The position numbers were made by a program, and so were the translations under genes. A stretch of 64,000 nt of DNA from a virus: positions 1 to 64,000 of IMG/VR virus record IMGVR_UViG_3300028388_006015, one strand, 5' to 3'. Below, in pieces: positions 1 through 64,000 of this stretch. Position 1 is the first letter of the stretch, and each line of letters opens with the position of its first letter. Below the pieces are notes generated by a model, which made no database searches, was not told where the DNA came from, and saw nothing but the letters and a program-made list of their open reading frames with translations.

Positions 1-526
1 TTCGCGGGGGGTGTGGTGCTGGATGGGAGCGGTGCCTCAATCGATACACCAAATAGAGTCCTGCCAAATGGGTTTACTGTAGGTTGTATAGTAAGCGTAG
101 AAGGGTTTTTTACGCAAAGTGCAGCGCAATTGTGGTATGAAACGTCAAATAATACTATATCTTTAGAAAATAGTAAATTATTTTTGAGGCTCGGAGGAGT
201 TAATTACAATTTTTCCCACACATTTGAAACAAACACACCTTATTTAATCGTATTAACTAGAGATGATGCTGACCTTGTATCACTATATGTTAATGGGAAT
301 TTTGTAAGCTCCCAGACCATTTCTGGGGATTTTGTTTACAATGTTTTTGGGGCGAGATTGACATTTATCACACTCACTGGTTCTGTAAGGGATTTGTTCG
401 ATGTCAACTTTGCCCTTTCCGCAGCAGAGATTACCGAGTTGCACACCAACGGCCTCCGCGCCTTCATCGCCGCGCATCCTGAGTACCAGTGGGGAAAACC
501 AGATTTGATTACTAATGGTGATTTCA
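1..526 (+). CDS. Partial LamG/concanavalin-like beta-sandwich protein (phage fibre-type), truncated at both ends; apparently foreign to the rest of the window
   Basis: Frame open from base 1 (FAGGVVLDG...). LamG-like motifs PYLIVLTRD..VSLYVNG and NFALSAAEITELH, then LITNGDFS. Beyond ~526 the 13..888 ORF reads as the antisense of a minus-strand gene. Confidence 0.65.
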
Positions 527-16738: not shown

Positions 16739-16752
16739 AAGACTTTTTTTTG

Positions 16753-17016
16753 TTAATGATAAGGTTGACAGTAAGTTATTGTAATTTGTTCTCGATAATT
16801 CGCGTAATATTCTTTTATTGCACACAATTCGTGAATAATCTCCTGTTCAGAAGGCATTTGTGGAAAGAATAATTGCTCCTGATGCTCTCTAGGAAGAGGG
16901 AGCATATTGATTTGCAACTTGATTAAAAATTTGCAATTGTGATGGGTGTTACCTTCATCTTCCGGATTAATATCGGAATATCCCAAATGCCTTTTATAGA
17001 GTTCTTCTTTACTCAC
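16753..17016 (-). CDS. Hypothetical protein inside the deazaguanine cluster
   Basis: 87-aa ORF overlapping the queE stop. Confidence 0.5.
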   Translation of the reverse strand: MSKEELYKRHLGYSDINPEDEGNTHHNCKFLIKLQINMLPLPREHQEQLFFPQMPSEQEIIHELCAIKEYYANYREQITITYCQPYH

Positions 17017-17795
17017 ACCTCTCTTTTATTGCCGTGAATAATAATGTGCAAACGATCTGTGTAATTGTATCCACGCTCAATGCAGATCTGTTCAAGCCAT
17101 TGACGTGATTGTTCAAGTTTTTCATTCACATCACCTGCAGGCATAAGCCAACAATGATTTGCAGGTATATTAAGAACGACACGAATATGTTCAAACTCTT
17201 TAAGGGAGTCATCATCCTCAATAACCGGTTTAACTTGATAATCTTTACAACCACAACGAATCCATGATTTCATTGCGTCATAATTGCTACGCCATTTATT
17301 GTGACGATCTACGTCTTTCTGAGTTACCTTGCGACCAATCTCTGTAATAAAACTATCAACGACAGGTACAGAGTTGCTAAGCTTAGGCGAAAGAGAGAGT
17401 AAATCAATTCGATGAGATAAACGAGTGCCAAACCATTCGATCCATTCAGAACCTTCAGTTTCGAGTGTAATGTGACTGTCAGAAACACGCCACCGAATAA
17501 ACTCAACAACTTGTGGTAAAATTGTCTTTTGAAGTGTAGGACCTCCTCCAGTAATTATAAAGTGCTTGATATGCTGATTTTCACTAATTAAAGCAGCAAT
17601 GCGCTCGTACGTCCAAGATCCCTTTTCTGGTTTCCATGAAGAATACCAAGTATCACAAACACTATTTGCGAATTGACATCTCAATCGACAACCGACAAAA
17701 CGAATCATAATGCTTGGTGTTCCTATAAGTTTTCCTTCACCCTGCAAACAAGTGTACACCTCATTTATTGGCAGTGGTTTACTTTCTGTCATCAT
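17013..17795 (-). CDS. queE: 7-carboxy-7-deazaguanine synthase (radical SAM)
   Basis: EVYTCLQGEG..IGTPSIMIRFVGC, CRLRCQFANSVCDT (CX3CX6C), ITGGGP, TLETEG, SLSPKL, RLHI. Confidence 0.93.
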   Translation of the reverse strand: MMTESKPLPINEVYTCLQGEGKLIGTPSIMIRFVGCRLRCQFANSVCDTWYSSWKPEKGSWTYERIAALISENQHIKHFIITGGGPTLQKTILPQVVEFIRWRVSDSHITLETEGSEWIEWFGTRLSHRIDLLSLSPKLSNSVPVVDSFITEIGRKVTQKDVDRHNKWRSNYDAMKSWIRCGCKDYQVKPVIEDDDSLKEFEHIRVVLNIPANHCWLMPAGDVNEKLEQSRQWLEQICIERGYNYTDRLHIIIHGNKREV

Positions 17796-18360
17796 ATTCG
17801 ACAATTCCTTTTTCTTTGGCATATTCTAATATGTGTTTGCTGTTATATTCACGAAAATTCAATCGTTCCGCATGATCAATGTCATTGGTTCGCACTATTG
17901 TATAGCACTTAGGAGTTTCATACAAAGTTACGGCAGTTGGTATGAGTCCTTTATATTCAAGAAATAACAATTCCATGGCAAGTAAAATCTCCTTTGCTAT
18001 GTTCTCTACAGTTGGATTGCAATATTTCAATCCTGTTCGTGTAAAAGGCTGCTCGTTAGGATCTTGTCTGCCATTTAAACTCATAACCCATGCTTTAGAT
18101 CCGAGCTTTTTGCACATATCCAAGATCTCCTCGTCGTGCGGATTAGCAATAAATCCGTGATCTAGTAAATCGTCGATCCATTGCATACCAACGCGCTTAA
18201 TTTCTTTAAAATCAATCGCATAGCCGATCTCTGCCATTGACGAGAATGAGAAGTGGACGTGACAAATGTATGTATGTCCGTGGATGTTGAAACATTTCAT
18301 CTTTTCATTCATCACTCTATGTCCACTATCAAATGTGGTTATTCTAACAATCTCTTGCAT
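17779..18360 (-). CDS. queD: 6-carboxy-5,6,7,8-tetrahydropterin synthase
   Basis: FDSGHRV, CFNIHGHTY, IDFKEIK, LDHGFI, NPTVENIA, YETP. Confidence 0.93.
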   Translation of the reverse strand: MQEIVRITTFDSGHRVMNEKMKCFNIHGHTYICHVHFSFSSMAEIGYAIDFKEIKRVGMQWIDDLLDHGFIANPHDEEILDMCKKLGSKAWVMSLNGRQDPNEQPFTRTGLKYCNPTVENIAKEILLAMELLFLEYKGLIPTAVTLYETPKCYTIVRTNDIDHAERLNFREYNSKHILEYAKEKGIVEYDDRK

Positions 18361-45838: not shown

Positions 45839-46186
45839 TTAGTCTTCAAGATTCTCAATAATCAGCTCAATAAGTTCGCTTTTCTTGAGATTAGCATATC
45901 CCTCAAGATCGGCCTCTTCTGCCATTGCGCGCAATTCTGCAAGTTTGAGTGCTTTAAGATCATTTCTAAACTGTTCAACGTTATTATCTTTAGACTGATC
46001 TTCATTAGACTCTTGACCTTCATCATCAATAAGCTCAAGACCATACTGATCACTAACCTCAATTACACGTGCAGGTACTTTTGCTCTTGGAATATCACAA
46101 ACCCCATCTTCGTCAAAATCGAATGGCACGTTGCAGATTCGCACTGTAGAGCCTTTGCGATTGATTTTATCTGTTTTAAAGCGCAT
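45839..46186 (-). CDS. Rho-N/HeH domain protein
   Basis: LKALKLAELRAMAEEADLEGYANLKKSELIELI. Confidence 0.75.
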   Translation of the reverse strand: MRFKTDKINRKGSTVRICNVPFDFDEDGVCDIPRAKVPARVIEVSDQYGLELIDDEGQESNEDQSKDNNVEQFRNDLKALKLAELRAMAEEADLEGYANLKKSELIELIIENLED

Positions 46187-46268: not shown

Positions 46269-47824
46269 TTAAGCCGGTGCTGTACGACCAATATTTATGA
46301 ACCGTACCATCTTGCCAGGTGCATACAATTGGAGAGTGCCATAAAGCAGCACCATAAAGCGCGTTGCAGGGCTCAACACTGCGAGATTCATTTTCATCAA
46401 GGGTGCAAGTTGCTTGAACTCGTACACATCGGTAGAATCTTCGAACAACATCGCTTCTTGAGTATCAGGCAACCAACGATTACGATCACCAACTTTCGTA
46501 GCAGCAGCTCCATCGTATCCTGCAGCAACCTGTGCTGTACTGACGGTAAACAGTGGATAAAACTTAACATCAGCAATGCTATTTGCATCATCCACTGCAG
46601 AACGATAAATCTGGTAAGCTGTGGCCGGGTAAGCACCACCACCGTCAACAAACTGAAGATCTACACGATCACTTGCGGCAACTGTATCAGCACCACCACC
46701 GTTAAGAATCAACAGAGAAGATTCACCATAACGGTTGATTGCACTAACAGCGTAATAGTAGTCTCCTGCATCACCAGCAGCAAAAAGAGATGCGCCGTCA
46801 GCATTGACAACAGCTGTTGGAGCTCCACCGGCCGTTGGTGCATTGGGCGCCTTTTGAGAAGTGGCTGCGGTAGCTTGTTTTTTGAATCCAGGCTTTTTCA
46901 GGAACTTGTCGTAACGGAAATTAACCTGACCAAACTGAGTTTGAACAGCATTAACCCGTTGCCCCATAATGCCTTGAGTGATCTGCTGACTGTTGGGGAA
47001 AATTTGCTTGTAGCTCAAGAAGTTTTTAGCAAAATCGCTAAGAACGACCGGAGGAGCAAGTAGGGTATCGGGATAGGCATGATTATTGATGAGGATTTCG
47101 GAAGCCTCTTCAATCACGGTTTCTGTCAAACGTTCGCCGCGAAGGTCAACAACAACATCGGATCCCATATAGTCAGTCAGGCTGGAATAGGCGTTGCGAT
47201 GCTGAGCATACATGCCGTTAGGCTGGAATAGGCGTTGCGATGCTGAGCATACATGCCGTTGAATTCTTGAGGAACGAGACTGGCATCTCCATAGGCAAGT
47301 GCGCGGTCAACTTTGCGGAGAATCCACATCGTACCACTTTTTACCTCACTGTTGATCGCTCCACCAACACTGGGCTGAATACGAACCAACTGCATCGGGT
47401 GACTAACAGAACGAGTTGTTCCGAGGAACTTTACATGTTCTGCCATCCGACGGTAAACGGTATCTTCTTCTTCCGGAAGTTCACCTTCATTATTAAAGCC
47501 TCCGCGATCTTGACCGTAGCTCACGAGCTGATTGAACTCTTCTACAGTATTATAGGCGGGAGATTTGTTAACCATTCGCCAAAAGACAATATCGCTTTCA
47601 CGAAACGTCAAGTGTTTGAGTGTGGACTCGAGAGACTCAACTTTCAAGGGGGCACCACTGGCTGTTGTAGAGCCTGTGACATCACGGCCGGTAACCTGAC
47701 CTGCCTCCAATGCTTTGCTCAGGGCAGCGAGGTCTTGCGGGGTGGTCAACGCCTCCCCGAAAGCCCCATCTCCATTTTGCAACGAAGCGTAGTCCTCAAG
47801 GTTTACTCCTAAATTATGTACCAT
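46269..47824 (-). CDS. Major capsid protein (504 aa if one copy of the 41-bp duplication is removed); frameshifted as given
   Basis: The 215-aa and 314-aa ORFs share MYAQHRNAYSSLT; 1556-41=1515 nt = 505 codons. GAPLKVESLE, EFNG, FKQLAPLMKMNLA resemble SPO1/Twort-type MCP. Confidence 0.9.
47179..47260. repeat. Perfect 41-bp tandem duplication inside the capsid gene
   Basis: AGGCTGGAATAGGCGTTGCGATGCTGAGCATACATGCCGTT at 47179-47219 and 47220-47260. Confidence 0.97.
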
Positions 47825-47869: not shown

Positions 47870-49462
47870 TTACTGAATGATATGGACGTCGTGCTTTGTC
47901 TTGAGATCTTCAACGAGCTGTTGTACCGACAAAACCTTATCTCCATAAGCTTTTTCCAGATCAGGGTTGTTATCAAACGCCTTTTTCAGTGCTGTCATGT
48001 TGTGTGCACTACGACGACCAACTGGAGTGCTTTCTACCGTTTCTAGACGATCTGTGAGTTCTTGGATTTGATTCTGAAAGCCCTTTACAATAGTGCCAAA
48101 GTTTTCTTTCAATTCATCCTGTGAAGCAGAAAAGTCGTCAAATTTTGACGAGAGAACATCTTCAATACCTTTGATGATATTATCAGACGGATTGGTTTGA
48201 TGTGAAAAATCTTCCAGAGGTGCATTATTTTCACCTTTCGACATTGTCTGCGAACTAGATTGTCCACCGTTATCTTCTTCATTAACGCCCTCCATTGTCT
48301 TATTGGGAGCGCTCATTCCTTGAATGGCCTTAACGAGAGTAGCAATGGCCTTTTCCATCCTGTCAACCTTTTCCATGGCCTTGTTGAAGTTTTCCATTTC
48401 AACAAATTTAGCACCATGGGTGACGTTATTGTCGGTTTTGTTGCTCATCTCGACACTTTTTGCGTCAGGACCAGATGATACATCTGAGGGCATAGCTTTT
48501 ACAATGTTGCCTTCAACGGAAAAACCGAGATCTGTCAATGCTTTCGTTAGATCTTCGTGAGTAAGTGTATTGTTGGTCGATTGTTGCATCGCTGAACGAA
48601 TTTTTGCAAAATTATAAATCTTAGAAAATTCAGTGAACGGAATATTATGCCTTAGCAATAAATTATAAACGTCACCTTTTGTTAAAACTGATTGCCTAAA
48701 ATTACTATCTGTAGATTTATTAGACAACGGGGCGTATTTCTTTTCTTTATCGACACTTTCAAGAATTATTGGCTGATGGCTTTCAATTGTAGCTGCTTTT
48801 GCTACTTTGATATTAAAGCTGCGATCTATAGTGATTCGATACCCTTGATCATTGGTTACGTCAACAATATACTCTTGACCTCCATCAGCAGGATTCTCTC
48901 GAGTGTCAAAAGCCATTTCAGTATCGTCATATTCGCCTTTTATTAGCGATAGTAACGTATTGCTATTTTTTGGAGTTGGTGTTATTGCACAACCAGTAAT
49001 CTTGGCTTTCTTTACTTTTCGTGGGTCAAACACGTCGCGTTCTACCACTTTTCCTTCTATACTAAAGCCCAGTCGACGATTGGATGAAGATTTTTCTAAT
49101 GTTTGTGCAAGTGCGTAAACTTTACGTGCTTTTTCGGAATGAGGATATAAAAAGCCCTCAACGTGCAATTTTTTACCTTTTACAAATGCCTTTGTTGGTT
49201 CGCCCACAATAGATGACGGATCGACACTACCTCTATGGTTGTAGTTGAAATATCCATGATTGAGAAAAAATGACAGGTCAAAACCAGTAGGGTCGAGCAT
49301 TTCATCATCCGCATCAAGATCGGGAGTAGACGCTATACCTGCAATCATCATTTTACCCTGCTCACTACCATCATCTGCTTTTTGTATCTCAATAGGTACA
49401 AAAAACTTAAACTTGTCAGGTACTCCGTTTGTTTTAGAGCGATAATGTGTATTGTGTAGCAT
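47870..49462 (-). CDS. Prohead protease fused to scaffold
   Basis: IAGIASTPDLD, FNYNH, LGFSIEG, CAITPTPKN; long helical C-terminal half. Confidence 0.88.
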   Translation of the reverse strand: MLHNTHYRSKTNGVPDKFKFFVPIEIQKADDGSEQGKMMIAGIASTPDLDADDEMLDPTGFDLSFFLNHGYFNYNHRGSVDPSSIVGEPTKAFVKGKKLHVEGFLYPHSEKARKVYALAQTLEKSSSNRRLGFSIEGKVVERDVFDPRKVKKAKITGCAITPTPKNSNTLLSLIKGEYDDTEMAFDTRENPADGGQEYIVDVTNDQGYRITIDRSFNIKVAKAATIESHQPIILESVDKEKKYAPLSNKSTDSNFRQSVLTKGDVYNLLLRHNIPFTEFSKIYNFAKIRSAMQQSTNNTLTHEDLTKALTDLGFSVEGNIVKAMPSDVSSGPDAKSVEMSNKTDNNVTHGAKFVEMENFNKAMEKVDRMEKAIATLVKAIQGMSAPNKTMEGVNEEDNGGQSSSQTMSKGENNAPLEDFSHQTNPSDNIIKGIEDVLSSKFDDFSASQDELKENFGTIVKGFQNQIQELTDRLETVESTPVGRRSAHNMTALKKAFDNNPDLEKAYGDKVLSVQQLVEDLKTKHDVHIIQ

Positions 49463-50757
49463 TACTGACTGTTTTTTCGCGTAATAAGATTTACACGTAA
49501 TTGCTGAAAGTGTAAACTGTCTAACCCAAGCATTCCTGATTGATAAGCATTTTGTACGACCTCCATGGATTTACTAATTTCTTCCACACTAGGCCATTCA
49601 CTCATCGTTCCAATAAAATTGTATAAGCGCTCAAGATAATCAAAATGCTCAAGAATTTCAACGGGATGATCTAATTGTTTTATTTCTTCAGGCTCCAACC
49701 AAGCAAATTCTTCATGCTCGTAATTTAACTTGACCTGAGGATCGTCCATCTGTGCAAAAAAACAAAAAACATTCCAATCTGCCTCTTCGCGAACACCAAT
49801 TAATTGAATTTCACTTGGCAGTGTAATGTTTGTCTCTTCCAGTATCTCTCTGCGTACAAGATCGTACGGAGATTCGTTTTTATCATCACTAGTGCCACCT
49901 GGCAAAAACCATTTATTAGGCTCCCAGGGCGCTTCTGGACCTCTCAGCAATGTTAATATTTTACCACGACTATTACGTATAATGCATACAGCACCATAAT
50001 TATCGGCCTCAATTGCCTTCTTTAACTTATCATCAACATCTTTATTGTGCGTTTCCTTTTTAAGATTTAGTCGCTTTAATAGGTCGCTAATATTAAGATC
50101 GACAACATAGCACTTTACTCTAAAATTATCATCAACCTCTAACAAAGATGCCCAATAATGATTGTTATCTGTAAGAAATTTATCATTACTTATAACAAAC
50201 TCTCGTGGAGAAATCTGCTCAAGATCAGCTATGCAGCCAAGAATCTTTTCGTTATTAAATTCGCTTTGAATGGGCTTTAATTCTTTAACTGGAATAAACT
50301 GTACCTTAACCTTAATATCTTGATTGATAAAATGCTGCACAATATCTTCAACATCGTCTTGATTAATCTGAGGCATTCGATCACGAGTACGCTTAGGATC
50401 GGTATATTTAAGGTATTTGTGGTATTTAAGATTAGAGAACTCTAAATCTCCCAATATGCCCTGAATTCCTTTTTGTAGCTCATTCTGCTGCAATGTTAAT
50501 TCATCACACAACAAAGTTAATCGAGAAAGTGCACCGTCTCTTTTATTATCATAATACTGCTGCACTTGATGTTTTCCAGAACCTGTTTGTACTTGATTGA
50601 ATGCATTACTTCGACTCTTCTCTAAATCAACCATCTCATTTTTAAGAGCTTCAATTTGCCTCTTATATGATATGATATTGGTTAGTGAACGAGCACACGC
50701 ACTATTTTTTGGCTCAGAAGAGAATAAATTGTCGATTAATTGTGAAAAATAGCTCAT
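49462..50757 (-). CDS. Head-module protein with degenerate ParB/Srx-like domain and Nudix hydrolase domain
   Basis: RDRMPQI...LKPIQSEF...VISNDKFLTDNNHYWA; KWFLPGG..D.NES.YD..RREILEETNI; EHEEFAW. Confidence 0.8.
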   Translation of the reverse strand: MSYFSQLIDNLFSSEPKNSACARSLTNIISYKRQIEALKNEMVDLEKSRSNAFNQVQTGSGKHQVQQYYDNKRDGALSRLTLLCDELTLQQNELQKGIQGILGDLEFSNLKYHKYLKYTDPKRTRDRMPQINQDDVEDIVQHFINQDIKVKVQFIPVKELKPIQSEFNNEKILGCIADLEQISPREFVISNDKFLTDNNHYWASLLEVDDNFRVKCYVVDLNISDLLKRLNLKKETHNKDVDDKLKKAIEADNYGAVCIIRNSRGKILTLLRGPEAPWEPNKWFLPGGTSDDKNESPYDLVRREILEETNITLPSEIQLIGVREEADWNVFCFFAQMDDPQVKLNYEHEEFAWLEPEEIKQLDHPVEILEHFDYLERLYNFIGTMSEWPSVEEISKSMEVVQNAYQSGMLGLDSLHFQQLRVNLITRKNSQ

Positions 50758-51798: not shown

Positions 51799-52533
51799 TT
51801 AAAAACGAATTGGTGTCCAATTTAATCCAATCCCGACATAAGGTGCGGGACTTACCGCATTATTATTTAATGTGAATCCGTATCCAACCGAAACCCCAAT
51901 GCCAAACTTATTGGTAAGTCTGTCGATGATAATAGCTTCACCATCTACAATATCAATATATGGATTGTCGGTTGTAATATCAACAACTGAAGAACGCTTC
52001 TTAAAAAAGCCGCCCTTACGCTCAGTAATTTGAGAGGTGAGAGTTGCATATGTTTTGAATGCAAGGTCGATCGAATCTTGAGTAGCAACAACGCTCCAAT
52101 CTGCATACGCGTCTTGATTTTCACCATAATATGCATACTCAGGACAGTCGTTAGTGATTGTATTGTTTACGGGCACAGGAATTTCAACATATTCAGTATC
52201 TATTACCTCACGCGTTAATGTTGGAACGCTACCTTTATATTTGAGCTCAGCAACTAAGCGCGTATAATTGCGAATCAGACGATCTTGCTTCCGCACCTCT
52301 TTAAGAGCTTGATTGAGAAGAGAGTCTTTTTCTGAATACGCCCCTTCAATCTCATTACGATCAAGAACTAATGCTTCAATGCGAGTATGCGTTTGGTTGA
52401 GACTGTCTTTGTACGTATTAATAACGTCGGTGTGATAACTTTCAAGTTCGCGATGAATTCTTTGTTCCCTCGCACAAAATGATACCGATAACACGATACC
52501 GATTGCAAGTATGATGAATAGCCACTTTGTCAT
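51799..52533 (-). CDS. Spanin-like protein (N-terminal membrane anchor, coiled coil, C-terminal amphipathic beta-hairpin)
   Basis: MTKWLFIILAIGIVLSVSFC; C-terminus FGIGVSVGYG...YVGIGLNWTPIRF. Confidence 0.6.
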   Translation of the reverse strand: MTKWLFIILAIGIVLSVSFCAREQRIHRELESYHTDVINTYKDSLNQTHTRIEALVLDRNEIEGAYSEKDSLLNQALKEVRKQDRLIRNYTRLVAELKYKGSVPTLTREVIDTEYVEIPVPVNNTITNDCPEYAYYGENQDAYADWSVVATQDSIDLAFKTYATLTSQITERKGGFFKKRSSVVDITTDNPYIDIVDGEAIIIDRLTNKFGIGVSVGYGFTLNNNAVSPAPYVGIGLNWTPIRF

Positions 52534-52537: not shown

Positions 52538-53140
52538 TTAATATTGTTTGATTACGTTTTTGATTACGTCCAAGTCAAGACACATTCCCGCCACTCCAAT
52601 AACTTCATTATTGCGAAATCGCGGATATTTTTGAACAACTAAAAGTGTAGTTTCGCCTTCAGGGTTTACAAACTTTTCTACACCAATCCAACTCATTTTA
52701 TTTTCGACAACCCACTTATTGTTCTCCATATAACGCTCAGCAAATTTTTGATCATTATATAGATCACTTATCTTTTTGCCAATGCAATCCTTTGCACTCA
52801 AATTATAATCATTGAGAAATGTTCGCTCATACTCTTTATTGACATATAGCATTACACCATCTATGGATGTAAGCCAATGAGCGTTAACGTGATCATAAGT
52901 TGCCGATTCAAAGAACACTATTTGAGATTGTAAGATATATACCTGTTTTTGCAATTCTCCAATCAACAAGTCATTTCTCTCAACCTCTTGTTTTAATGCC
53001 AATCTCTCAGCCTTGTATTCACTAATGATTAATACAAGCTCGTCCATATTTGTTTTTCGTCGCGTTGCCAAGTATGTTAAAAAACCACTAATGACAGTGG
53101 ACGAGAATATAGCTATAACTAGCTGTAATACATTGTCCAT
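52538..53140 (-). CDS. Membrane protein with coiled coil and PAS domain (holin-like)
   Basis: One TM followed by RRK; coiled coil; WLTSIDGVMLYVNKEYER...IGKKISDLY...KYP...VIGVAGMCLD is a PAS_4-type pattern. Confidence 0.75.
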   Translation of the reverse strand: MDNVLQLVIAIFSSTVISGFLTYLATRRKTNMDELVLIISEYKAERLALKQEVERNDLLIGELQKQVYILQSQIVFFESATYDHVNAHWLTSIDGVMLYVNKEYERTFLNDYNLSAKDCIGKKISDLYNDQKFAERYMENNKWVVENKMSWIGVEKFVNPEGETTLLVVQKYPRFRNNEVIGVAGMCLDLDVIKNVIKQY

Positions 53141-53146: not shown

Positions 53147-54742
53147 TTAATTAAAAGCACCACTCTTTAGCTCGTCCTCAAAGGCTTTATAAACGGGGTT
53201 TGCATTAAAATCATAAAACTCGCCCTGATCTCCTTCTTCGTTATACTCATCAATGGCCTCGTTACTTTCTTGTCCACCCATAGCTTGTTGTGAGAGCCAT
53301 TGAATATATTGAGGATTAAGAACAATATCATCGTCTTCAAGATCACGAGGAAGACCTGCTTTTTCACGAGCTTCTTTGAGTCCCATAATAGAGCCGACTC
53401 TTTTAGCATCAAGTTCTACTTCATCTTTTTCGTTTTCAGAATCAAGACCAACAAACTCCAAAACAAATTCGTCAGTTAATGGCTCAATAAGCCACCTATT
53501 AAGCTTTCTTTGAATAAAACGCATTAATGGTCTCAATCCTTTATCACGACTATATTTCAATCGCGCTTCATTATTTCCTTCAAAAAGAGACTGGCTTCCT
53601 GAACTTCCACTAAGATGAAAACCAATCTCACTAGGGTCAATACGATATACACTACATGCAATCTTCAACAAGTATTCTTGCCACTTAGAGAATTCCATGT
53701 CTCGATTAGACTTTTGCATATCTATCCATTCAAAATCATCAGCCTGGATCAATGGAGTCTTCCAGCTATTTTGAACACCCGAAACCATTGACCACCATTC
53801 TTGACGAAATTCGCTAAGTCGCGTTTCGTTTACAACACCTGCAGCCTTCCAAACTCCCTTTGGAGCACTTCCTTGAGAAAAGAAGTTACCATTATGCTGA
53901 TCACCCCACAACATCCATGTTACAATCTTAATAAGTACCTCCAATTCACTCATTCCATACCCATTGCTCGTTAAAGTGTTTTGAGGATTTCTGATACCTA
54001 AACACATTTCCCAAGGATAGAAATAAGAGATGATCGTATCCTCATAAAGCTGAACATATTCAGGAGCATATCCATTAACCTTTTGAATATCAGCACTATC
54101 ATACGTATGATCGACCTTACGAATAGTTGAGCTGTCGCATGTTACAAATTCAGTCGGTCTAAAACGACGATCTTGTACGACCTCGAATGCAGCATGATCA
54201 AGAACAAGACTGTCAGAAAGCCACTTTCGAATAAAATCCTCAATATTATCACCAACCCACTTCTTATCTTCCACGCTACAATTGAGAATGAATTTTTCCA
54301 ACTCCCTTACCTTCTTGTTGTTGTACAACTTTTCATTGCCATCTCTCTTATTGCGTTCTCTACGTACAAAGCGAAATCCAACCTCATATTTTTCCCATGC
54401 AGGTTGAAGAAATTCGCACACTTGATCTATTCTCGTTCCAATAACTGCAGCAATTACAGGCGTTTTGGCAATTTTGCGCAACATTTTTTCAGAAACACCA
54501 GCAAAACGTTGTTGGTATCCACGAGTATTGTTGTTGCTATAGGGATCTGAAATTATTGTTGATCGCTTACTTGTATTGGCTTGTTGTTTCGCACTTTGTT
54601 GTAATTGTGCAGATACAGAATATGCCTTCATTATTGAATGAGGGTCGTTGGATAGCATGGCCTTGTGCAGCACTTCTTGTTGACGTGCTTGTAGGTCTTG
54701 TATCTGCTTAGATATCTGTTGTAATTCTGTTAATTCTGACAT
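53147..54742 (-). CDS. Portal protein
   Basis: IGTRIDQV, DSLVLD, IRNP...GYGMSELE, NFFSQGSAPKG, DMEFSKW, SRDKGLRPL. Confidence 0.93.
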   Translation of the reverse strand: MSELTELQQISKQIQDLQARQQEVLHKAMLSNDPHSIMKAYSVSAQLQQSAKQQANTSKRSTIISDPYSNNNTRGYQQRFAGVSEKMLRKIAKTPVIAAVIGTRIDQVCEFLQPAWEKYEVGFRFVRRERNKRDGNEKLYNNKKVRELEKFILNCSVEDKKWVGDNIEDFIRKWLSDSLVLDHAAFEVVQDRRFRPTEFVTCDSSTIRKVDHTYDSADIQKVNGYAPEYVQLYEDTIISYFYPWEMCLGIRNPQNTLTSNGYGMSELEVLIKIVTWMLWGDQHNGNFFSQGSAPKGVWKAAGVVNETRLSEFRQEWWSMVSGVQNSWKTPLIQADDFEWIDMQKSNRDMEFSKWQEYLLKIACSVYRIDPSEIGFHLSGSSGSQSLFEGNNEARLKYSRDKGLRPLMRFIQRKLNRWLIEPLTDEFVLEFVGLDSENEKDEVELDAKRVGSIMGLKEAREKAGLPRDLEDDDIVLNPQYIQWLSQQAMGGQESNEAIDEYNEEGDQGEFYDFNANPVYKAFEDELKSGAFN

Positions 54743-54814: not shown

Positions 54815-55312
54815 TTAAACGCCCTCGGCAGATGTATTATTAATCAACTCCTGTTCTTCACCACCATTATCATTATCAAAGAAGAAGTGGTATAGCGGAT
54901 TGATTATATTTATTACCAATGCAATCGCAAAAGCCTCAAATTGACCGTTTCCTGATATCCAAGCAAACAGTGTCTCTATTAATTGAGCTGCTGCTCCATC
55001 AGGAAACGCAATACCTAAACCTACAGGAATCATAAGAAGAACAGTCAAGGATTGAATCCTAAAATTCATAGATTTTAGAAAATCCCACGACCATTGTTGA
55101 GTTTTTGTTAGCAACTTTAATACCGGGTTAAGAAAGTTTGTAATAAGCAACGCCACAATGGCTCCGATGTTGCCTCCATTAAAAACTTCAAACACCTCTC
55201 CTCCTGATACTCCAATATCAAAACCGTTAAGGTTAAATACGAGCAAAACGAGCGATATCAAAGATACAAAAAAGTTGCGACTATCAAAAGTTGCATTAAT
55301 CTTGGTTTGCAT
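54815..55312 (-). CDS. Multi-pass membrane protein with two-fold internal repeat (holin candidate)
   Basis: SRNFFV...NFLNPV and SMNFRI...NIINPL halves; about four hydrophobic segments. Confidence 0.6.
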   Translation of the reverse strand: MQTKINATFDSRNFFVSLISLVLLVFNLNGFDIGVSGGEVFEVFNGGNIGAIVALLITNFLNPVLKLLTKTQQWSWDFLKSMNFRIQSLTVLLMIPVGLGIAFPDGAAAQLIETLFAWISGNGQFEAFAIALVINIINPLYHFFFDNDNGGEEQELINNTSAEGV

Positions 55313-55317
55313 GACTA

Positions 55318-55893
55318 CTAAAGTTTTTTGCAATGAAAAGTAAGTTGAATTTTAATGTCTGTTGGAGCGACTCCTCCAGTTCCATCTTTGTTGTTATCAG
55401 CACCTCCATGCCATGGAAGAATATAGGCGGCTTTGCGAAAATCTTTATCCCATAAATATTGCGCCTCTATTGCTTTTTCGTCAGTGAAAATCTTGATCTT
55501 TACAAGACTGTCGTGAATAAATCTAATTTCACCACTAACATCTTGTCCTCGTTTAACACTTATTTCATTAGGTCTGACGAACTTGCCTTTATCATAGTTA
55601 AAATACGGAGCAATATCCCAAGTACCTTTTTCAGGGTTTGATTGGAACGTTACAATAGCAGCATCATAATTTGAAGGATTATTCTTGTTAAGATTAACGC
55701 CAAATAATTTGCTACTATCTAGTTGATCAGGATCTGGACGTATATCGTATGGATCGCTTAATATGCGAAATGAAAACTGAATACTATGCGTTTTTCGAAC
55801 ATTAATGCTCTTGAGAAAACGATAGTAAAAACGAGCAACTAAAGCTTTTACGCTTCTATCTATGTGGTGGCCTTTTTTAATTGTATAGATCAT
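55318..55893 (-). CDS. Hypothetical beta-sandwich protein (possible carbohydrate-active)
   Basis: 191 aa; DQLDSSKLFG, LPWHGG...APTDI. Confidence 0.5.
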   Translation of the reverse strand: MIYTIKKGHHIDRSVKALVARFYYRFLKSINVRKTHSIQFSFRILSDPYDIRPDPDQLDSSKLFGVNLNKNNPSNYDAAIVTFQSNPEKGTWDIAPYFNYDKGKFVRPNEISVKRGQDVSGEIRFIHDSLVKIKIFTDEKAIEAQYLWDKDFRKAAYILPWHGGADNNKDGTGGVAPTDIKIQLTFHCKKL

Positions 55894-56499: not shown

Positions 56500-57306
56500 T
56501 TAAAAGTTGTATCTTGCATAAATCCAATCTCGCACTGACGCAATTTCTGTATTATTATGCTCATCGTCATAAATTAACAACTCAGCTATATATCCATCCC
56601 AAAAGCCTGAAGCCCCATCTCTACTAGAACCTATACAGCTACCATTAACCAAAAACTCACCCCAAGATTCAGACAATGAGTTAAAAGCTATACTTGTTCC
56701 TGGAGATACTACTGTCTTAAATTGACTACCAGAGTCGTCAATCATTACAACATACAATCTAGCAGTATTAATACTAGAACTGGATACTTTTGAAAATGCT
56801 TGAGTTTGACCCCTTACTAAAAACTCCTGAAACGATGCTGTTGATGCGTCAGATCTAATTATAAGACCTCCACTATTAGCTCCATTAAAACTAAATATTC
56901 GTTTATCGACAACATTAGCATCTGCTTTTCCTACAACATAGACAGTAATATGAGCGTTATTTGGCAAGAAGTCTCCGGTAGTTAACTCAAATCTATCATT
57001 AGCTCCATCAAAAACATAAGATGCTTGATTATTCATCACACCTACTATTGGAGCAAAAGTAGGTCTAAATGATGATATTGTTTGCTCATAAACAACGGTA
57101 GGATCTGCCCAATTAATTGGAGAGCTTACTGATTGACCGTTAGTATAAGTATCTATTTCAGCAGAGGCCTGAATGTGCACTTTTAAATTTGCAGTAACAG
57201 GAGGAGCTTCATATAAACCACCCCCATGCTGTCCCAACCACATTCCTTGCTGAGAAATCCCAACAAGAGGTAATAGCCATAATATGATTAATACTAGTCT
57301 ATTCAT
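56500..57306 (-). CDS. Signal-peptide-bearing LamG/lectin-like adhesin (fibre-tip type)
   Basis: MNRLVLIILWLLPLVGIS/Q; VFDGANDRF, FWDGYIAELLIYD...VRDWIYARYN; TAATG-coupled to the giant fibre. Confidence 0.8.
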   Translation of the reverse strand: MNRLVLIILWLLPLVGISQQGMWLGQHGGGLYEAPPVTANLKVHIQASAEIDTYTNGQSVSSPINWADPTVVYEQTISSFRPTFAPIVGVMNNQASYVFDGANDRFELTTGDFLPNNAHITVYVVGKADANVVDKRIFSFNGANSGGLIIRSDASTASFQEFLVRGQTQAFSKVSSSSINTARLYVVMIDDSGSQFKTVVSPGTSIAFNSLSESWGEFLVNGSCIGSSRDGASGFWDGYIAELLIYDDEHNNTEIASVRDWIYARYNF

Positions 57307-60300
57307 TATTCTATTGTTGTTAAGCATTTATATACGCCTGAGTTTCCGTAACAAGTCACCATCGCTTCTGTAGCTATTGTTATAGTACCTAAATCGGTAC
57401 CGTCTAATGAATTGAATTCTGATGGAAAAGTAATATCCGTATCGGCACTCATACCGGAAAAGTGGAAGTTATATACAGGAGCTGTACCTGCCAATGTAAC
57501 TTCATTGTTAATAGTTAGAGTACAGTCGTTATTACCTGTATTAGTTATATAGTAACTAGCGTTATAATAGCCCTCCATATCTAATGTAATAGTCGATCCT
57601 GTAATATTCCCAGTCAACAATTTATTTGTTAATTTCTCAAGGTAGTCGTATACCGCATTTTGGCTAGGCGCATTTGCCGTATCGCCATCCCATCCAGATC
57701 CGTAAGCATCATCCTCAACTCCTCCTACATCACCTTTAGACGCCATTAAATCCCAATCACTGGCCAAAGGACCAGGTTCTTCAGTTGTTGATGCTGCCGT
57801 GCATACCCAAGCACTTCCATCATTTTCAACTGCTTGATTTATCAAATACGTTCCTGCAGACCAAGCACCTTCCCAAGTAATATCACCATCGGCACCTGGA
57901 GATCCTGCAGGTCCGGCAGGTCCTTGCTCTCCCTGAAGTGCTTCAATTTTCATAATATTTATATACGTTGCTGTATCGGAAACATTAAATACTCCACTAT
58001 CTTCTATGGAAATAGCGTATAATTTAAGTTTATCCCCGCCATTAAATGTTTGAGTGTAAGTCAACGTAACAGCGCCATCATCTTGATTGCCATCTCTAGT
58101 AACATAGTCATTTGTACTAATGATAGAGCTATATCCTGACCCTTCATCTAAATGAAGACTTGCTGTAAGTTCGTTTCTACTAATAGCTCCGTTACCTGCT
58201 ACTTGAAAAGATATTTGATATAAAGCAGTGTCTAATAATGTAATCTCTTCACCACTTACCGTATACACTGAATCATCAGTTTCGTAGGGAGTATCCCACG
58301 ATAAAAATGTACCACTACTTGCAATATTACTAGTAGTTGTAGTAAATGCTCCCATAAACGAGAATGAACTAGGAATTGTTGTTTCAGGCGTTATCCATTT
58401 AAGACTATCTAAACCATCATTGATTCCTAAATAAGCACCTGCAACAGCAGATCCGGCAATTGGGTGTCTTTCCATATCATCGTCACTCGATCTAAAGCCT
58501 AACAATGACTCAGGAACACCATCATTAAACGTTTCGTACTTATCTAATTCCACTCGCCCGTCTGATTGTAGTGTCATAACATTCTGAGTGGTCAATCCAT
58601 TAGTAGTCCAAAAATTAAGATCTGATGAGCGACTCGATCCATTCCAATTACCAACTGCACTAGATTCAATAAACGACATTGGATAAAATGTACTAGACTC
58701 GTAACCTCCAAACAAAATTGCTCCTAATTTTTCACGATCAAAAATACTTGCATCTGAAGATCCAATAGTTAAGTGATTACTTCCTGATATAAAAGATGAT
58801 CCGCCGGTACTACTAGGTGCTTCTAAGAATAAAGAGCTGTATGATAAAGTACTATCTCCATCCTCCCACTTAAATCTTGTAAGGTTCGATCCGGCATCTG
58901 GATGTATTGCAAAATCACCATCTACAAAAAACTGATAACTACTATCCGCAGTACCAATTGATGCTCTTCCTAATCTATAAACTGCACTCAAATACGTACT
59001 ATCTCCCTCAAATCTCCAATCATCATCTCCTCCCCCTGAATCGCTTTGTAGATCTTCAATTGGAACGGCTAAATTAGATTCTCCATCCACCAATCTTAAA
59101 GAATCTCCATCTACCTCAAAACTAATATTATATCCTGATGTATCAGGAGATCCTCCTCCTGTTGGAGTGTCGTAGAAAATAAACGTCACGTCACTATCAG
59201 TGCTATCTGGTACCCATGCACCACGAACATAAACGGTCTTTGCTGTTGTTGCTGATACTTCAGGAACACTACCATCATTAAATAAGTGTGCATCTAAAAG
59301 CGTATATGTTCCACCTGCTGGATCTAATATTTGCAATACTGGTTTGGATCCAACTGTTGTAAATTCGCCAATTAACGTAACGTCGTTTAGACGAGATGAA
59401 ATTAACGTTGCTTCATCAACACTACGAAAAACACCTCTCAGCTCAAAAGTAGCGCCTGTAGGTGGCGTAAAGCTTCGAGGAGCAAATAATGGATCGTCAA
59501 TTGCACCAGTATAATCAAGATTGTATGTGAATTCGCCCTCATAACGAATAAATAGATTCTCACAATATGCATTAGGAAAATATCCTGTTTGCATAAGAGG
59601 ACTGTTGCCAAAATATTGATCTATATTTACTTCAATTGCACTATTGCGCAATGTATCTGCTCCTGTTCCCCAGTCAAAAGCAAACAATCCATATTCATTA
59701 ACATGACTGTCAAATCCGCCATTAGTTGTCAGGTTACTGACACGATCACTAATCATATTACCGACATTCCATCTAAGAGATGTGTTTTCCCATCTATGCG
59801 ATCCGGTAACCTGAAAAATACTGAAATCTTGATCAATTATATTCCAATATCCAATATTGATTTCGTGAGATTGATTGATGCATGTGTCAGTAAGAAAATA
59901 AAAGCCTCCCTGACGATATTGATTAAGTCTTTGAATGTTAAATTGCGTGTTTTCAAAACCTGTAGTACCGTCCCACTGACAAACAAAATTGTCTGTTGAT
60001 ATTTTATCAATCGTAATATTTGCAATCACTCCCTGTTCAAGCTCAAATAATGGAACTGATGTAGTGTTTGTCAAAAACGTATCAACAATCTCCTTAGCTT
60101 CAAATATTAAACTTTTGCCTGTTGTTGAATTCATATAGGCAATTTCTCCATCATTTCTTATTGTAATTTTTCCCCGACCAAGTACCGTAATGCCATATCC
60201 ATTATTATCATACCATAATGGAGAAGTTGATGCGTTAATGATCTCAGCGCCCTCAAATAAATAATATTGAAGATCGGGAGCTGTAATTAAATTATTAGAA

Positions 60301-63300
60301 GTTGCTGAATTCTTGATAATATCGTAATCAGGATACTCTCCCGTATACGTCAATGTTGTAGCGATATATCTTCCCGGTAATACTTGAATTTGATCTGAAC
60401 TATCTGCAGCCGCAGCAGCAGCCCAAGGATCTTTCCATGGACGAAGATAGTTTCCCTTTTCTGCAGTTGCGTTATTACCGTTTTCCGCAACAAATAGAAT
60501 ATCTCCATAATTTTCTTCTCCCACAAACGTACTTAACGTATCATTGCCATCTACAAGATATAACGTATCATTATCTACATACATATCAATGTTATATCCT
60601 GATGTGTCCGTATTGTCAAGATACGATGCAAGATCGGCTTCAAGAGTTCCGTCCTGATCAGTAATTTTTAAAGTATCGTTTTCGATTATAAGATTGTAGT
60701 TCGATCCAGAAGTATCTAAACCTATTCCATCTTGAAGTGATGCGAGATCTTCAGTTAATGTGCCATCTTGATCAGTCAGTTCGAGTACTGTTCCGTTAAG
60801 TACTAAGCTATAATTACTTCCAGACGTATCGAGTCCAATTCCATCTTGCAGATCTGGAATGTAAATGGCAAGATTAGTGCTTCCATCAATAATTCTCAAA
60901 GAATCTCCATCAATTTCAAAAGATATGTTATATCCGGAAGTGTCTGTATTTTCTATAGGAAATACTTGCCATGCCGTTCCGTCCCAATAATTAAACAAGT
61001 CAAGATCTGTATTCCAAAAAAAAGCACCATCATATACAACAGACGGAAGTGTAGGCCATAAATCTCGAGCTACTGTACTTGCATTAGTAGGTACGATAAC
61101 ACCTTCCGATGTGACTTTAACAGTCTCTAATTGAATTTCATGTCCACTATCTACATCTAATCTTAAATCACCACTGATTTCATCTATTACTACTCCACCA
61201 TCAAAATTATATATCGCAAAACTATCTAGAGGTGAATGACCTTCGAGATAATAGTTAACAGCATCATCTGAGCTATATGGTGTAACTACCCTTATAGCTC
61301 TTTCGGACAATCCTGCGTCCGTATTCAGATCAAACTGAAGCCAATAATCTTCAGGAACATTAACGTTCATTACAGCAGGTAAACTATTACCATCATTGCG
61401 AATGTCAAAAATACCGTTACTGTCTGCTACAATTACAAATAACTCACCTAACTGATCTGTTAATTTAAGAGTATCGTTTTCAAGAACGAAACTATAATTT
61501 GAACCACTTGTATCTGTGCCTACTAATGATAATAAATCAACTATTATAGTTCCATCTTGATCTGTAACTTCTAGGTCTGTACCGTTCAATACAATTGAAT
61601 AATTAGATCCTGATGTATCAACACCTACCCCATCCTGTAGGGATGCGAGATCTTGTATTAGTGTACCATTTTGATCGGTTAATTCTAATTGAGTTCCATT
61701 AAGCGTTAATGTATAATTACTACCTGACGTATCTACTCCTATACCGTCTTGAAGATCAGGAATGTATACAGCTAAATTCGTACTACCATCAACAACTCTC
61801 AAACTATCGCCGTCAATCTCAAACGATATATTATAGCCCGAAGTGTCTGTATTGTCAAGAAGATCTGACAGGTCTACATCAGTGCCATTTTCTATATCTA
61901 AATCACCCAATCCATTATACGTTAAACCTTGATCGTCTGTATTGTCTAAATACGCAGATAGATCAACAACCAATAGTCCACTTTGATCAACAATCTTTAA
62001 CGAATCATTCTCTATAACTAATGAGTAATTTGAACCTGAAGTGTCAGTACCAACTAAGGATGCTAAATCTTGTATTAACGTTCCTCCTCCATCCACTAAC
62101 TCAAGATCTGTCCCGTTAAGAGTTAAAGATGTGTTATATTCGTTTGTTGGGTCTGCATCAGCATCATCAACAGAATCTTCAAATTGAACTTGACCACCAT
62201 CTACTAACGATATGATAATTGTAGTTCCAGTAGAGTCAATAGACAAATCTTGAGTGTCAGTGTTATCGAGATATGGCGACAAAATCACAGCAAAGCTTCC
62301 ATTCTGATCTTGAATATATAAGCTGTCATTCGATATATAAAAATTATAATTTGAGCCTGATGTATCAGTACCTATTCCATCTTGAAGTGACGCCAAATCA
62401 GCAGTAAGAGTACCGTTCTGATCAAGCAATTCTAGATCTGTACCGTTAAGTATTAATGAATAATTTGAACCTGACGTATCCGTTCCAATCCCATCCTGAA
62501 GATCAGGGATATAAACGGCGAAGTTAGTATTTCCGTCTGTCAATCTCAAACTGTCTCCATCTATTACAAATGAAGTATTATATCCAGAAGTATCGGTATT
62601 GTCGAGATACGCAGACAAGTCAACTATTAGCGTACCGTTTTGATCTGCTAATTTCAAAGAATCATTTTGTATGATTAAAGAGTAATTACTGCCCGAACTA
62701 TCTGTACCGACCAAAGAAGACATGTCTGTAATTATAGTACCATTTTGATCTGTAGTTTCAAGATCAGTGCCATTTAATAGTATTGAATAGTTCGAGCCTG
62801 AAGTATCCGTTCCAACACCATCTTGAAGGTCTGGAATATAAACAGCCAAACTCGTTTGACCATCAGTTATTCGTAGACTGTCACCATCAATAACGAATGA
62901 GACATTATATCCTGAGGTGTCGGTATTATCAATATAAATATCGTTCAGTGTTGCTGTGTCTGCTACTAAAGGATCGCCTAATGTTCCATCACCAGAAATA
63001 CCGTATCCTGTTTCAGCAACTTGGTTTCCCCAATCATCTCCATCCACTGTAGCTGCAGATAACGGCTTAAACATACCATCGCCAAACAACACCATAGTAT
63101 CTTGTCCTATCTGTGGTTGAGGAACAAGTCCTCTTTGACCTGCAGTAGATGAAGTCGCGCCCACCATTACATTGACAGTATCACCTACTCCATTAGTTAT
63201 TGACATTAATCCTGTAGCTGCATCGTATGATAAATCTTGCTCATCTACTCCTAAATCTGGAATATAAACAGCAAAATTTGTTTGACCGTCGATTATACGT

Positions 63301-64000
63301 AAACTATCTCCGTCAATTTCAAAACTGTAATTATAACCACTACTATCAATTCCTCCACCACCTGCAAATACTCTCCATGCTTGATCAATAAACATACCAA
63401 TAGTATCTTGTGCGGCTGTTATAAAGAAATCTTGCTCTCTTGGTGCAAGTGTATTGGTATCAACAACCTCATCAAGAATAAAAAAGTCATTATCGCACAC
63501 ATTGTAGTATCTGCCACTGCTAATTATATACAATCGCAATTCTGCAGTTGATGAACGAATTGTGTCAGGACCGGCTAATGTAAAAAAACTACATCCTTGA
63601 CGTAAAATGTCTGTACTGTCTGGTGATGTGATTCTAAATGGCGTTCCTAATTCTGTACTTGAACCTCGCACGTAAATAATTTTGCCATCATAACTTGTAT
63701 CGGGAAGTGTTGGAAAGATAATATCAACAGGAGAGCCTGTAAATGCACCGCCATATATAGATATGATGTCGCTCGTGTCAAGAACCTCAATTGGCAATGT
63801 GTAAGAGTCGCCAAACGTTAGTCTTTTATGGAACACACGATTATCTCTAATGTATGGAATCAAAGAAGCAAAAAGGATACCGCCTTGATCTTCAAGATAC
63901 AAAGTGTCATTTTGCACATACATATCGTAGTTCGTTCCAGATGTATCCGTTCCAATGCCATCTTGAATATCAGGTATGTAAATAGCTAAATTCGTCTGAC
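57306..64000 (-). CDS. Giant acidic repeat-rich fibre/adhesin (>2230 aa, 5' end outside the window)
   Basis: Frame stays open to 64000 (QTNLAIYIPDIQDGIGTDTSGTNYD-M). Contains ~35-aa repeats, a beta-helix-like block, a C1q-like domain, a collagen stretch GEQGPAGPAGSPGADG and a WEGAWSAGTY...W module. Confidence 0.88.
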   Translation of the reverse strand, partial: QTNLAIYIPDIQDGIGTDTSGTNYDMYVQNDTLYLEDQGGILFASLIPYIRDNRVFHKRLTFGDSYTLPIEVLDTSDIISIYGGAFTGSPVDIIFPTLPDTSYDGKIIYVRGSSTELGTPFRITSPDSTDILRQGCSFFTLAGPDTIRSSTAELRLYIISSGRYYNVCDNDFFILDEVVDTNTLAPREQDFFITAAQDTIGMFIDQAWRVFAGGGGIDSSGYNYSFEIDGDSLRIIDGQTNFAVYIPDLGVDEQDLSYDAATGLMSITNGVGDTVNVMVGATSSTAGQRGLVPQPQIGQDTMVLFGDGMFKPLSAATVDGDDWGNQVAETGYGISGDGTLGDPLVADTATLNDIYIDNTDTSGYNVSFVIDGDSLRITDGQTSLAVYIPDLQDGVGTDTSGSNYSILLNGTDLETTDQNGTIITDMSSLVGTDSSGSNYSLIIQNDSLKLADQNGTLIVDLSAYLDNTDTSGYNTSFVIDGDSLRLTDGNTNFAVYIPDLQDGIGTDTSGSNYSLILNGTDLELLDQNGTLTADLASLQDGIGTDTSGSNYNFYISNDSLYIQDQNGSFAVILSPYLDNTDTQDLSIDSTGTTIIISLVDGGQVQFEDSVDDADADPTNEYNTSLTLNGTDLELVDGGGTLIQDLASLVGTDTSGSNYSLVIENDSLKIVDQSGLLVVDLSAYLDNTDDQGLTYNGLGDLDIENGTDVDLSDLLDNTDTSGYNISFEIDGDSLRVVDGSTNLAVYIPDLQDGIGVDTSGSNYTLTLNGTQLELTDQNGTLIQDLASLQDGVGVDTSGSNYSIVLNGTDLEVTDQDGTIIVDLLSLVGTDTSGSNYSFVLENDTLKLTDQLGELFVIVADSNGIFDIRNDGNSLPAVMNVNVPEDYWLQFDLNTDAGLSERAIRVVTPYSSDDAVNYYLEGHSPLDSFAIYNFDGGVVIDEISGDLRLDVDSGHEIQLETVKVTSEGVIVPTNASTVARDLWPTLPSVVYDGAFFWNTDLDLFNYWDGTAWQVFPIENTDTSGYNISFEIDGDSLRIIDGSTNLAIYIPDLQDGIGLDTSGSNYSLVLNGTVLELTDQDGTLTEDLASLQDGIGLDTSGSNYNLIIENDTLKITDQDGTLEADLASYLDNTDTSGYNIDMYVDNDTLYLVDGNDTLSTFVGEENYGDILFVAENGNNATAEKGNYLRPWKDPWAAAAAADSSDQIQVLPGRYIATTLTYTGEYPDYDIIKNSATSNNLITAPDLQYYLFEGAEIINASTSPLWYDNNGYGITVLGRGKITIRNDGEIAYMNSTTGKSLIFEAKEIVDTFLTNTTSVPLFELEQGVIANITIDKISTDNFVCQWDGTTGFENTQFNIQRLNQYRQGGFYFLTDTCINQSHEINIGYWNIIDQDFSIFQVTGSHRWENTSLRWNVGNMISDRVSNLTTNGGFDSHVNEYGLFAFDWGTGADTLRNSAIEVNIDQYFGNSPLMQTGYFPNAYCENLFIRYEGEFTYNLDYTGAIDDPLFAPRSFTPPTGATFELRGVFRSVDEATLISSRLNDVTLIGEFTTVGSKPVLQILDPAGGTYTLLDAHLFNDGSVPEVSATTAKTVYVRGAWVPDSTDSDVTFIFYDTPTGGGSPDTSGYNISFEVDGDSLRLVDGESNLAVPIEDLQSDSGGGDDDWRFEGDSTYLSAVYRLGRASIGTADSSYQFFVDGDFAIHPDAGSNLTRFKWEDGDSTLSYSSLFLEAPSSTGGSSFISGSNHLTIGSSDASIFDREKLGAILFGGYESSTFYPMSFIESSAVGNWNGSSRSSDLNFWTTNGLTTQNVMTLQSDGRVELDKYETFNDGVPESLLGFRSSDDDMERHPIAGSAVAGAYLGINDGLDSLKWITPETTIPSSFSFMGAFTTTTSNIASSGTFLSWDTPYETDDSVYTVSGEEITLLDTALYQISFQVAGNGAISRNELTASLHLDEGSGYSSIISTNDYVTRDGNQDDGAVTLTYTQTFNGGDKLKLYAISIEDSGVFNVSDTATYINIMKIEALQGEQGPAGPAGSPGADGDITWEGAWSAGTYLINQAVENDGSAWVCTAASTTEEPGPLASDWDLMASKGDVGGVEDDAYGSGWDGDTANAPSQNAVYDYLEKLTNKLLTGNITGSTITLDMEGYYNASYYITNTGNNDCTLTINNEVTLAGTAPVYNFHFSGMSADTDITFPSEFNSLDGTDLGTITIATEAMVTCYGNSGVYKCLTTIE
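59040..64000 (-). repeat. About 18 degenerate ~100-bp coding repeats (D[TS]SG[YS]N...)
   Basis: Hand count: 17 D[TS]SG[YS]N in the listed protein plus one DTSGTN upstream; copies differ at synonymous positions. Confidence 0.9.

Follow-up and report, generated by a model that had tools for sequence, protein, structure and literature searches.

A phage-restricted family of membrane-anchored PAS proteins near lysis genes of Bacteroidota phages: a candidate single-span holin

Lysis timing decides phage fitness, and the known models explain it by holin concentration and membrane energisation. To our knowledge, the sole signal input to lysis timing described so far is periplasmic, namely that of T4 lysis inhibition. 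One of the closest functional analogues is the T4 holin T (class III), which is oriented N-in/C-out, binds the antiholin RI with its periplasmic domain and has its lysis timing controlled through this soluble domain, while its gene need not adjoin that of the endolysin. T is thus a precedent for a holin built from a protein with one transmembrane (TM) helix and a large soluble domain. In holin-antiholin pairs (lambda S105/S107, P1 LydA/LydB, and T4 T with RI and RIII), two membrane proteins stand side by side in the cassette, and we know of no antiholin with a PAS or other sensor-type domain; antiholins as a class lack a sequence feature that defines them. A link between a small molecule and lysis through transcription is provided by the VqmA of phage VP882, a soluble PAS-HTH protein of the type of VqmA, whose autoinducer is DPO. 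Sensors such as ArcB and Aer, which respond to respiratory-chain redox, join a membrane anchor, a zipper or helical linker and a cytoplasmic PAS domain to kinase or MCP outputs and carry redox Cys or FAD. Our literature search for PAS domains in connection with holins, antiholins or lysis cassettes found nothing relevant.

We analysed the first 64 kb (64,000 nucleotides, hereafter the window) of a 75,147-bp IMG/VR contig, IMGVR_UViG_3300028388_006015, with a CheckV completeness of 72%. The long ORFs of the window lie nearly all on the minus strand, including the gene of interest (52538-53140, ATG start), which encodes a 200-aa protein referred to here as the PAS-TM protein. Its N-terminal tail consists of three residues (M-D-N) with zero positive charge and is followed by a single TM helix (residues 4-26, 53063-53131; Kyte-Doolittle value of 1.96 for the 19-mer; helical in the AF2 model) that is predicted to be oriented N-out/C-in. 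Read from the sequence, the cluster R27-R28-K29 (53054-53062) directly behind the TM helix is the positive-inside determinant. A helical stalk (residues 30-82, 52895-53053; AF2 pLDDT 88-98) comes next and is probably a coiled coil, with family-conserved leucines 49, 63 and 70 in heptad register. Residues 87-199 (52544-52882) form the PAS domain, which exceeds the gathering cut-off of Pfam PAS_4 (PF08448; 26.7 versus 23.1 bits, residues 92-190) and scores slightly under the cut-off of TIGR00229. The NCBIfam scan returned PAS alone, and the protein also matched phrog_10199 (function unknown) at 8e-6. Thus, the original prediction of an N-terminal TM helix followed by RRK and of a PAS fold was borne out, and its coiled coil of ~45 residues stands as a stalk with heptad leucines, the length of which is about 50 residues and not 45.

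Structure prediction, which had been proposed as a check, was carried out with an alignment of 80 family sequences and gave a mean pLDDT of 94.2. The AF2 model comprises an unbroken helix (residues 2-82) and then a canonical five-stranded PAS fold (87-199), where the model reaches its C-terminal end. Foldseek matches in the PDB were NifL FAD-PAS, BvgS, VqmA, FixL, LOV and Aer2 (E about 1e-8 to 4e-6), and the top matches were cytoplasmic-type PAS domains only, with no Cache structures among them. As had been anticipated, neither Pfam nor the AF2 model revealed an output domain. Searches of Pfam, PHROGs and NCBIfam returned no match to a holin family, and PADLOC gave no defence system. The protein family resembles T4 T in its size (about 200 aa), its one TM helix near the N-terminus and its large globular soluble domain; in contrast to T, its predicted topology is inverted and its soluble domain is a PAS of the cytoplasmic type, and no sequence similarity was detected between the two. 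Membership among T4 T-type class III holins was accordingly rejected. The plan of membrane anchor, helical linker and cytoplasmic PAS is held in common with ArcB and Aer, and an ArcB-type cluster is among the structural neighbours in the Atlas; unlike these sensors, the family lacks an output domain and conserves neither Cys nor His within its PAS domain.

A family profile search against 1.84 billion representative proteins retrieved 99 clusters at E<1e-30, nearly all of 185-230 aa and with full-length matches. About 100 full-length relatives at this threshold argue that the ORF is real and not a chance frame. The family is essentially restricted to phages: only 1 of 401 Bacteroidota genomes has a member, which is located between large tail-like ORFs and an Amidase_2 gene, and the nearest ESM-Atlas clusters (67 to 1142 members each) are mostly 99-100% viral. 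Among cultured phages, members occur in Cellulophaga phage phi14:2 (Crassvirales) and in two Chryseobacterium phages, MA9V-1 and MA9V-2, and the GC content of most family loci is 30-45%. In records and libraries, homologues are called 'PAS domain-containing protein' or 'regulatory protein', or are of unknown function. Both gp089 of phi14:2 ('PAS domain-containing protein') and phrog_10199 are true homologues of the same architecture (30% identity), annotated at the level of the domain with no function given. Unlike gp089, the copy in the window adjoins a portal gene instead of an endolysin gene, and it is a divergent member of the family.

The topology of the family was assessed in 130 members. 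Lysine and arginine are more numerous after the TM helix than before it in 116 of them, with means of 3.45 in the 15 residues behind the helix and 0.48 ahead of it. The N-terminal tail is short (median of 6 residues) and acidic or neutral; as a positive n-region is lacking, the TM segment is not a Sec signal peptide. The TM segment is moderately hydrophobic (mean 19-mer Kyte-Doolittle value of 1.74) and its region is Gly-rich, with GG or GxxxG in 87 members. By the positive-inside rule, this charge bias puts both stalk and PAS domain on the cytoplasmic side (N-out/C-in), and such a location, which the original prediction had derived from RRK, is also favoured by a canonical PAS rather than a Cache fold. 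Cache identity, i.e., an extracytoplasmic PAS-like domain, was rejected because of a dCache_1 score of 21.6 against a cut-off of 45, the charge bias towards the cytoplasm and the lack of Cache structures among the Foldseek matches.

To survey the gene neighbourhoods, we used family sub-alignments to find related loci (numbered with the prefix L) in IMG/VR, GTDB genomes and JGI metagenomes, called ORFs in the flanks and scanned the neighbours with Pfam. The sample was seeded by pattern and is biased, and it represents about 31 lineages. A Pfam-supported endolysin is directly adjacent to the homologue in 7 of 26 non-redundant lineages. A binomial estimate of the chance of such adjacency, assuming one endolysin per about 70 genes, is p about 6e-6, a value that is only rough because the loci were pattern-seeded and are not fully independent. 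Within four genes of the homologue, endolysins occur in 11 of the 26 lineages and belong to six enzyme families. Counted in genes from the homologue, they are GH19 (phi14:2, +1, with start and stop codons overlapping as ATGA), GH108 (L035, +1; MA9V-1, -2), Amidase_2 (L036, +1), Amidase_3 (L012, +4; L020, +3), Peptidase_M15_3 (L028 and L029/30, +1; L038, -1) and DUF5675 (L024, +1; L005, +4), the last of these also being present at two extra metagenome loci outside the 26 (L058, +2; L060, -3). DUF5675 has been proposed as a C82-like lysin (bioRxiv 10.64898/2026.04.11.717860). The survey doubled as a refutation test of the original prediction, one of whose refuting conditions was the absence of linkage to lysis genes in other phages, and the linkage was found.

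The place of the PAS-TM gene in these cassettes, immediately upstream of the endolysin gene and often overlapping it, is the holin slot, and the overlapping start and stop codons suggest co-expression. Furthermore, the linked endolysins need a holin, since they have no signal or SAR segment. In the complete genome of phi14:2, only three TM proteins are encoded in the late region, namely gp089, the spanin-like gp087 and a 51-aa ORF, so that no other plausible holin candidate is near. According to the record annotation, gp087 to gp090 stand in a long run of structural genes and are the sole ones there to be missing from the published virion proteome.

Given this comparative evidence, we propose that the PAS-TM protein is an inner-membrane protein of the lysis module of a Bacteroidota myophage and acts as a single-TM holin with a large soluble domain, a reading to which we assign a probability of roughly 40%. 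Under this model, the short acidic N-terminal tail would be translocated and the single Gly/Ser-rich TM helix would span the membrane N-out/C-in; the stalk of ~50 residues would pair copies in parallel and hold the PAS domains about 7 nm under the membrane. The TM helices would then act in hole formation and free the cytosolic endolysin, in a manner comparable to the single-TM holin T of T4 with its topology inverted. The near restriction of the family to phages and the position of its lone bacterial copy next to Amidase_2 speak for the holin reading as well. On the other hand, the match to no known holin family counts against it, and a rigid stalk with a PAS domain is typical of signalling proteins. 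Every argument in its favour is comparative, and the holin of phi14:2 could instead be encoded in the early region, which has several small ORFs with 2-3 TM segments.

The strongest competing explanation is that the protein is an antiholin-like regulator, which would restrain a separate multi-TM holin through its TM helix and stalk and release it upon a change in the PAS domain. We consider this somewhat improbable. In its favour, a small protein with at least two TM segments is encoded no more than four genes from the PAS-TM gene in at least 12 of about 31 lineages, and such a neighbour could be the true holin, which weighs against the holin reading of the PAS-TM protein itself. Neighbours of about 80 aa with 2-3 TM segments are encoded directly upstream in L028/29/30 and L054; those of L020 and L058 have 2 and 6 TM segments, those of L006 and the window 3-4, a recurrent TM family of 125-139 aa is found in L010, L023 and L055, and L060 has a small protein with at least two TM segments as well. 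In L028-30, L054, L006 and the window, the combination of a small multi-TM protein with the PAS-TM protein resembles holin-antiholin pairs, with no homology found. In L029, the order of small TM protein, PAS-TM protein, M15 endolysin and u-spanin-like protein leaves the PAS-TM gene as a surplus gene, and a sensor-type design without an output domain would suit action by protein contact.

In the window, the partner would be a 4-TM protein of 165-172 aa with an acidic C-terminal tail (54815-55333, minus strand; four hydrophobic segments), a candidate holin or partner. Its family comprises 42 proteins with no Pfam match, an internal repeat signature of NF(L)NP(I/V)LK and N(I/V)(L/I)NPLYHFF, and the acidic tail. 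In L006, the gene that immediately follows the PAS-TM gene encodes one homologue (blastp 5e-12), and in L050 a second adjoins a marginal Peptidase_M15_3 ORF. The family may be an undescribed holin family. Complex prediction of the 4-TM protein with the PAS-TM protein scored 0.00, which reads neither way. What argues against the regulator is the diversity of such partners: they belong to no fewer than four unrelated families, in contrast to the conserved PAS-TM protein, and specific binding to all of them would be unparsimonious. Moreover, seemingly complete cassettes have no other multi-TM candidate nearby (phi14:2, L035, L036 and L012). L020 (5001-7060) and L058 (304-1874) share a conserved pair of the PAS-TM protein and a 6-TM protein of 184-208 aa, behind which the lysins differ (Amidase_3 and DUF5675, respectively), an instance of the familiar modular exchange of lysis enzymes next to a membrane component that stays conserved. 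That the PAS-TM gene is conserved while the endolysins beside it are interchangeable and the small TM proteins non-homologous points to a function independent of any one partner, as holin function is.

Less probable still, and in our judgement unlikely, is a membrane-tethered PAS protein outside lysis, serving host take-over, superinfection control, assembly or signalling and riding in a variable region shared with lysis genes. Lysis cassettes are hot spots for accessory genes, and not all copies are located in one. In the window, L021/22/27, L041 and L048, the PAS-TM gene is surrounded by genes for portal, capsid and protease and no endolysin is seen nearby, and in the L013-L019 clade it lies behind glycosyltransferase-like genes. 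Such placement among head genes in four or more lineages also counts against the holin reading, as does the failure to find an endolysin on the window's own contig. Against a role outside lysis, endolysins of six families adjoin the gene far more often than expected by chance, the codon overlap suggests co-expression with the endolysin, the neighbouring gene in the window is spanin-like, and the site occupied in the window is a lysis locus in a related phage.

This last point comes from the gene order around the portal. Transcription up to the PAS-TM gene would pass a giant tail-like ORF, two signal-bearing ORFs, a 191-aa ORF, the 4-TM gene and the portal gene (53147-54742, minus strand; Phage_portal 4.6e-24; phrog_12), which stands between the 4-TM and PAS-TM genes; beyond the PAS-TM gene follow genes for a 244-aa envelope protein, a 50-aa ORF, a 305-aa protein, a Nudix fusion, the prohead protease and the major capsid protein. 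The PAS-TM gene begins 6 nt behind the portal gene and ends 4 nt ahead of the 244-aa gene. Judged by the portal, the closest cultured relative of the window is Chryseobacterium phage MA9V-3 (38% identity), in which the post-portal region (L073, 1725-5708) encodes two 3-TM proteins, a lipoprotein with a C-terminal TM segment, a 545-aa ORF and a GH19 endolysin, every gene being a 'hypothetical protein' in the record. The lipoprotein is homologous to the u-spanin-like protein of MA9V-1 (6e-6) and the endolysin to gp088 of phi14:2 (2e-16). As MA9V-3 keeps its lysis genes there, the post-portal site is taken as a lysis locus in the lineage of the window, where it holds the PAS-TM gene and a spanin-like gene, in favour of the holin reading. 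In Bacteroides phage DAC19, a homologue of the 305-aa protein (1e-26) occupies the same position behind the portal gene.

The linkage to lysis in the window is indirect, because no endolysin was found on the 75-kb contig with PHROGs on 48 ORFs, with tblastn using 11 reference lysins or with Pfam scans for six families (PF00182 being void, as its control gave no match). The linkage is drawn from the post-portal site, the spanin-like downstream gene and the 4-TM protein with its homologues. The profile-library search left out large ORFs and 9 ORFs beyond the window. The endolysin is either in the missing part of the genome or of an unrecognised type. A tblastn search of the window neighbours against all family loci fetched gave no match, and a promoter and terminator scan of the window was at chance level, the scan being unsuited to Bacteroidota promoters.

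The gene directly downstream (51799-52533, minus strand) encodes the 244-aa envelope protein of the DUF6549/DUF6808 group (weak DUF6808/DUF6549 matches; phrog_14997; PF20647). An N-terminal hydrophobic segment that ends at Cys20 leads into a helical region and then into Gly-rich strands that end in Phe. By this architecture it is a candidate single-chain spanin; the original description of the downstream gene as spanin-like was a fair one. Its clusters in the Atlas are virus-specific (91-100% viral). phi14:2 gp087 and the protein at +2 in L026 have a similar plan and likewise end in Phe. The likeness is in architecture only, with no significant BLASTP match to gp087 and no detectable similarity to the L026 protein. 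No word-level homologues of the 244-aa protein were found, and its single-sequence AF2 model was unreliable (pLDDT 41.6).

Spanin-type proteins recur in the cassettes: MA9V-1 and L029 have u-spanin-like lipoproteins bearing a C-terminal TM segment, and L012, L020, L035 and L060 have plain lipoproteins; lipoprotein-like genes are positioned at +1 in the window, +1 and +2 in L012, -1 in MA9V-1 and L060, -2 in L020 and +3 in L035. These neighbours, together with an N-terminal TM anchor, a long coiled coil and the weak dCache_1 match, would suit an i-spanin whose periplasmic coiled coil and PAS/Cache-like domain pair with an adjacent outer-membrane lipoprotein, but this is highly improbable, since the charge bias and the tail without a positive n-region predict the opposite topology, PAS_4 passes its cut-off and dCache_1 does not, the top structural matches are all cytoplasmic PAS domains, and the MA9V-1 and L029 cassettes already hold a u-spanin-like gene.

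The role of the PAS domain was further considered. Conserved polar residues of the domain in the family are K91, D92, N101, E105, D124, D141, K171 and R174. The copy in the window keeps 22 of 32 family-conserved positions; P85, P87, K91, D92, P111, G113, Y119, D124, W128 and D141 are replaced, four charged residues among them with the changes K91T, D92S, D124I and D141N, and its PAS specificity may therefore differ or be lost, which is a further point against the holin reading. The family PAS domain has no conserved His or Cys, which argues against chemistry of the heme, LOV or PYP type, and these were set aside. Among sequences of solved structures, the family profile matched VqmA best (E 1e-4), in agreement with the structural matches 6ugl and 7dwm. 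In the profile alignment, a conserved F (Y137 in the window) corresponds to F67 of VqmA and K171 to K101, and V or I stands at F99. Residues F67 and K101 of VqmA are essential for DPO binding (bioRxiv 10.1101/2019.12.19.881847). The similarity is weak, and membership among VqmA-type receptors was rejected in view of the V/I at the F99 equivalent and the absence of an HTH or other output domain; unlike VqmA, the PAS-TM protein is membrane-anchored, has no DNA-binding domain and belongs to a family that sits inside the lysis cassette. Sensing by the PAS domain is inferred only.

The original prediction tied lysis timing to a cytoplasmic metabolite or redox signal. In such a mechanism, the state of the PAS domain and stalk, altered by ligand, redox or partner binding, would set the time at which the TM helices assemble, and the family would be a widespread, phage-restricted set of holins gated from inside by a metabolite, redox or energy signal of the cytoplasm. 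We regard gating of this kind as doubtful, clearly less probable than a holin function as such. Host lysis by some Bacteroidota phages may be timed by a signal from inside the cell, and a TM helix with a cytoplasmic PAS domain in lysis cassettes would offer a testable route by which a phage reads the state of its host. If the gating is true, the family would supply the first holin to combine a bona fide sensor domain with an inverted class-III-like topology, representing a new mode of lysis timing, and in many Bacteroidota phages the timing would not be set by holin accumulation alone. A ligand-gated holin, if real, would also be a useful part for synthetic biology. In the records examined, few lysis genes of Bacteroidota phages are annotated, those of crAss-like phages among them; the PAS-TM proteins, the spanin-like DUF6549/DUF6808 group and the 4-TM proteins provide concrete candidates.

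Several other features of the window were observed. The 191-aa ORF (55318-55893) overlaps the start of the 4-TM gene and had no match anywhere. The giant ORF upstream (57306-64000 and on to contig position 64559, minus strand) extends past the end of the window; it encodes about 2417 aa, and a hydrophobic or signal-like segment stands at its N-terminus. In the head-morphogenesis block, a 431-aa protein (49462-50757, minus strand) encoded between the genes for the 305-aa protein and the prohead protease joins a phrog_2859 region to a C-terminal NUDIX domain. Two overlapping ORFs (47177-47824 and 46269-47213, minus strand) share the split major capsid protein and cover phrog_752 positions 16-176 and 184-470; GC near the split gene (46269-47824) reaches 0.46, and an HNH/EndoVII-like ORF is next to it (45839-46186). 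A frameshift, a sequencing error or a mobile-element scar are possible causes of the split. Finally, a gene cluster on the minus strand (16094-18360) encodes a GTP cyclohydrolase, a QueE-like radical SAM protein and a QueD-like protein, and its content suggests 7-deazaguanine DNA modification.
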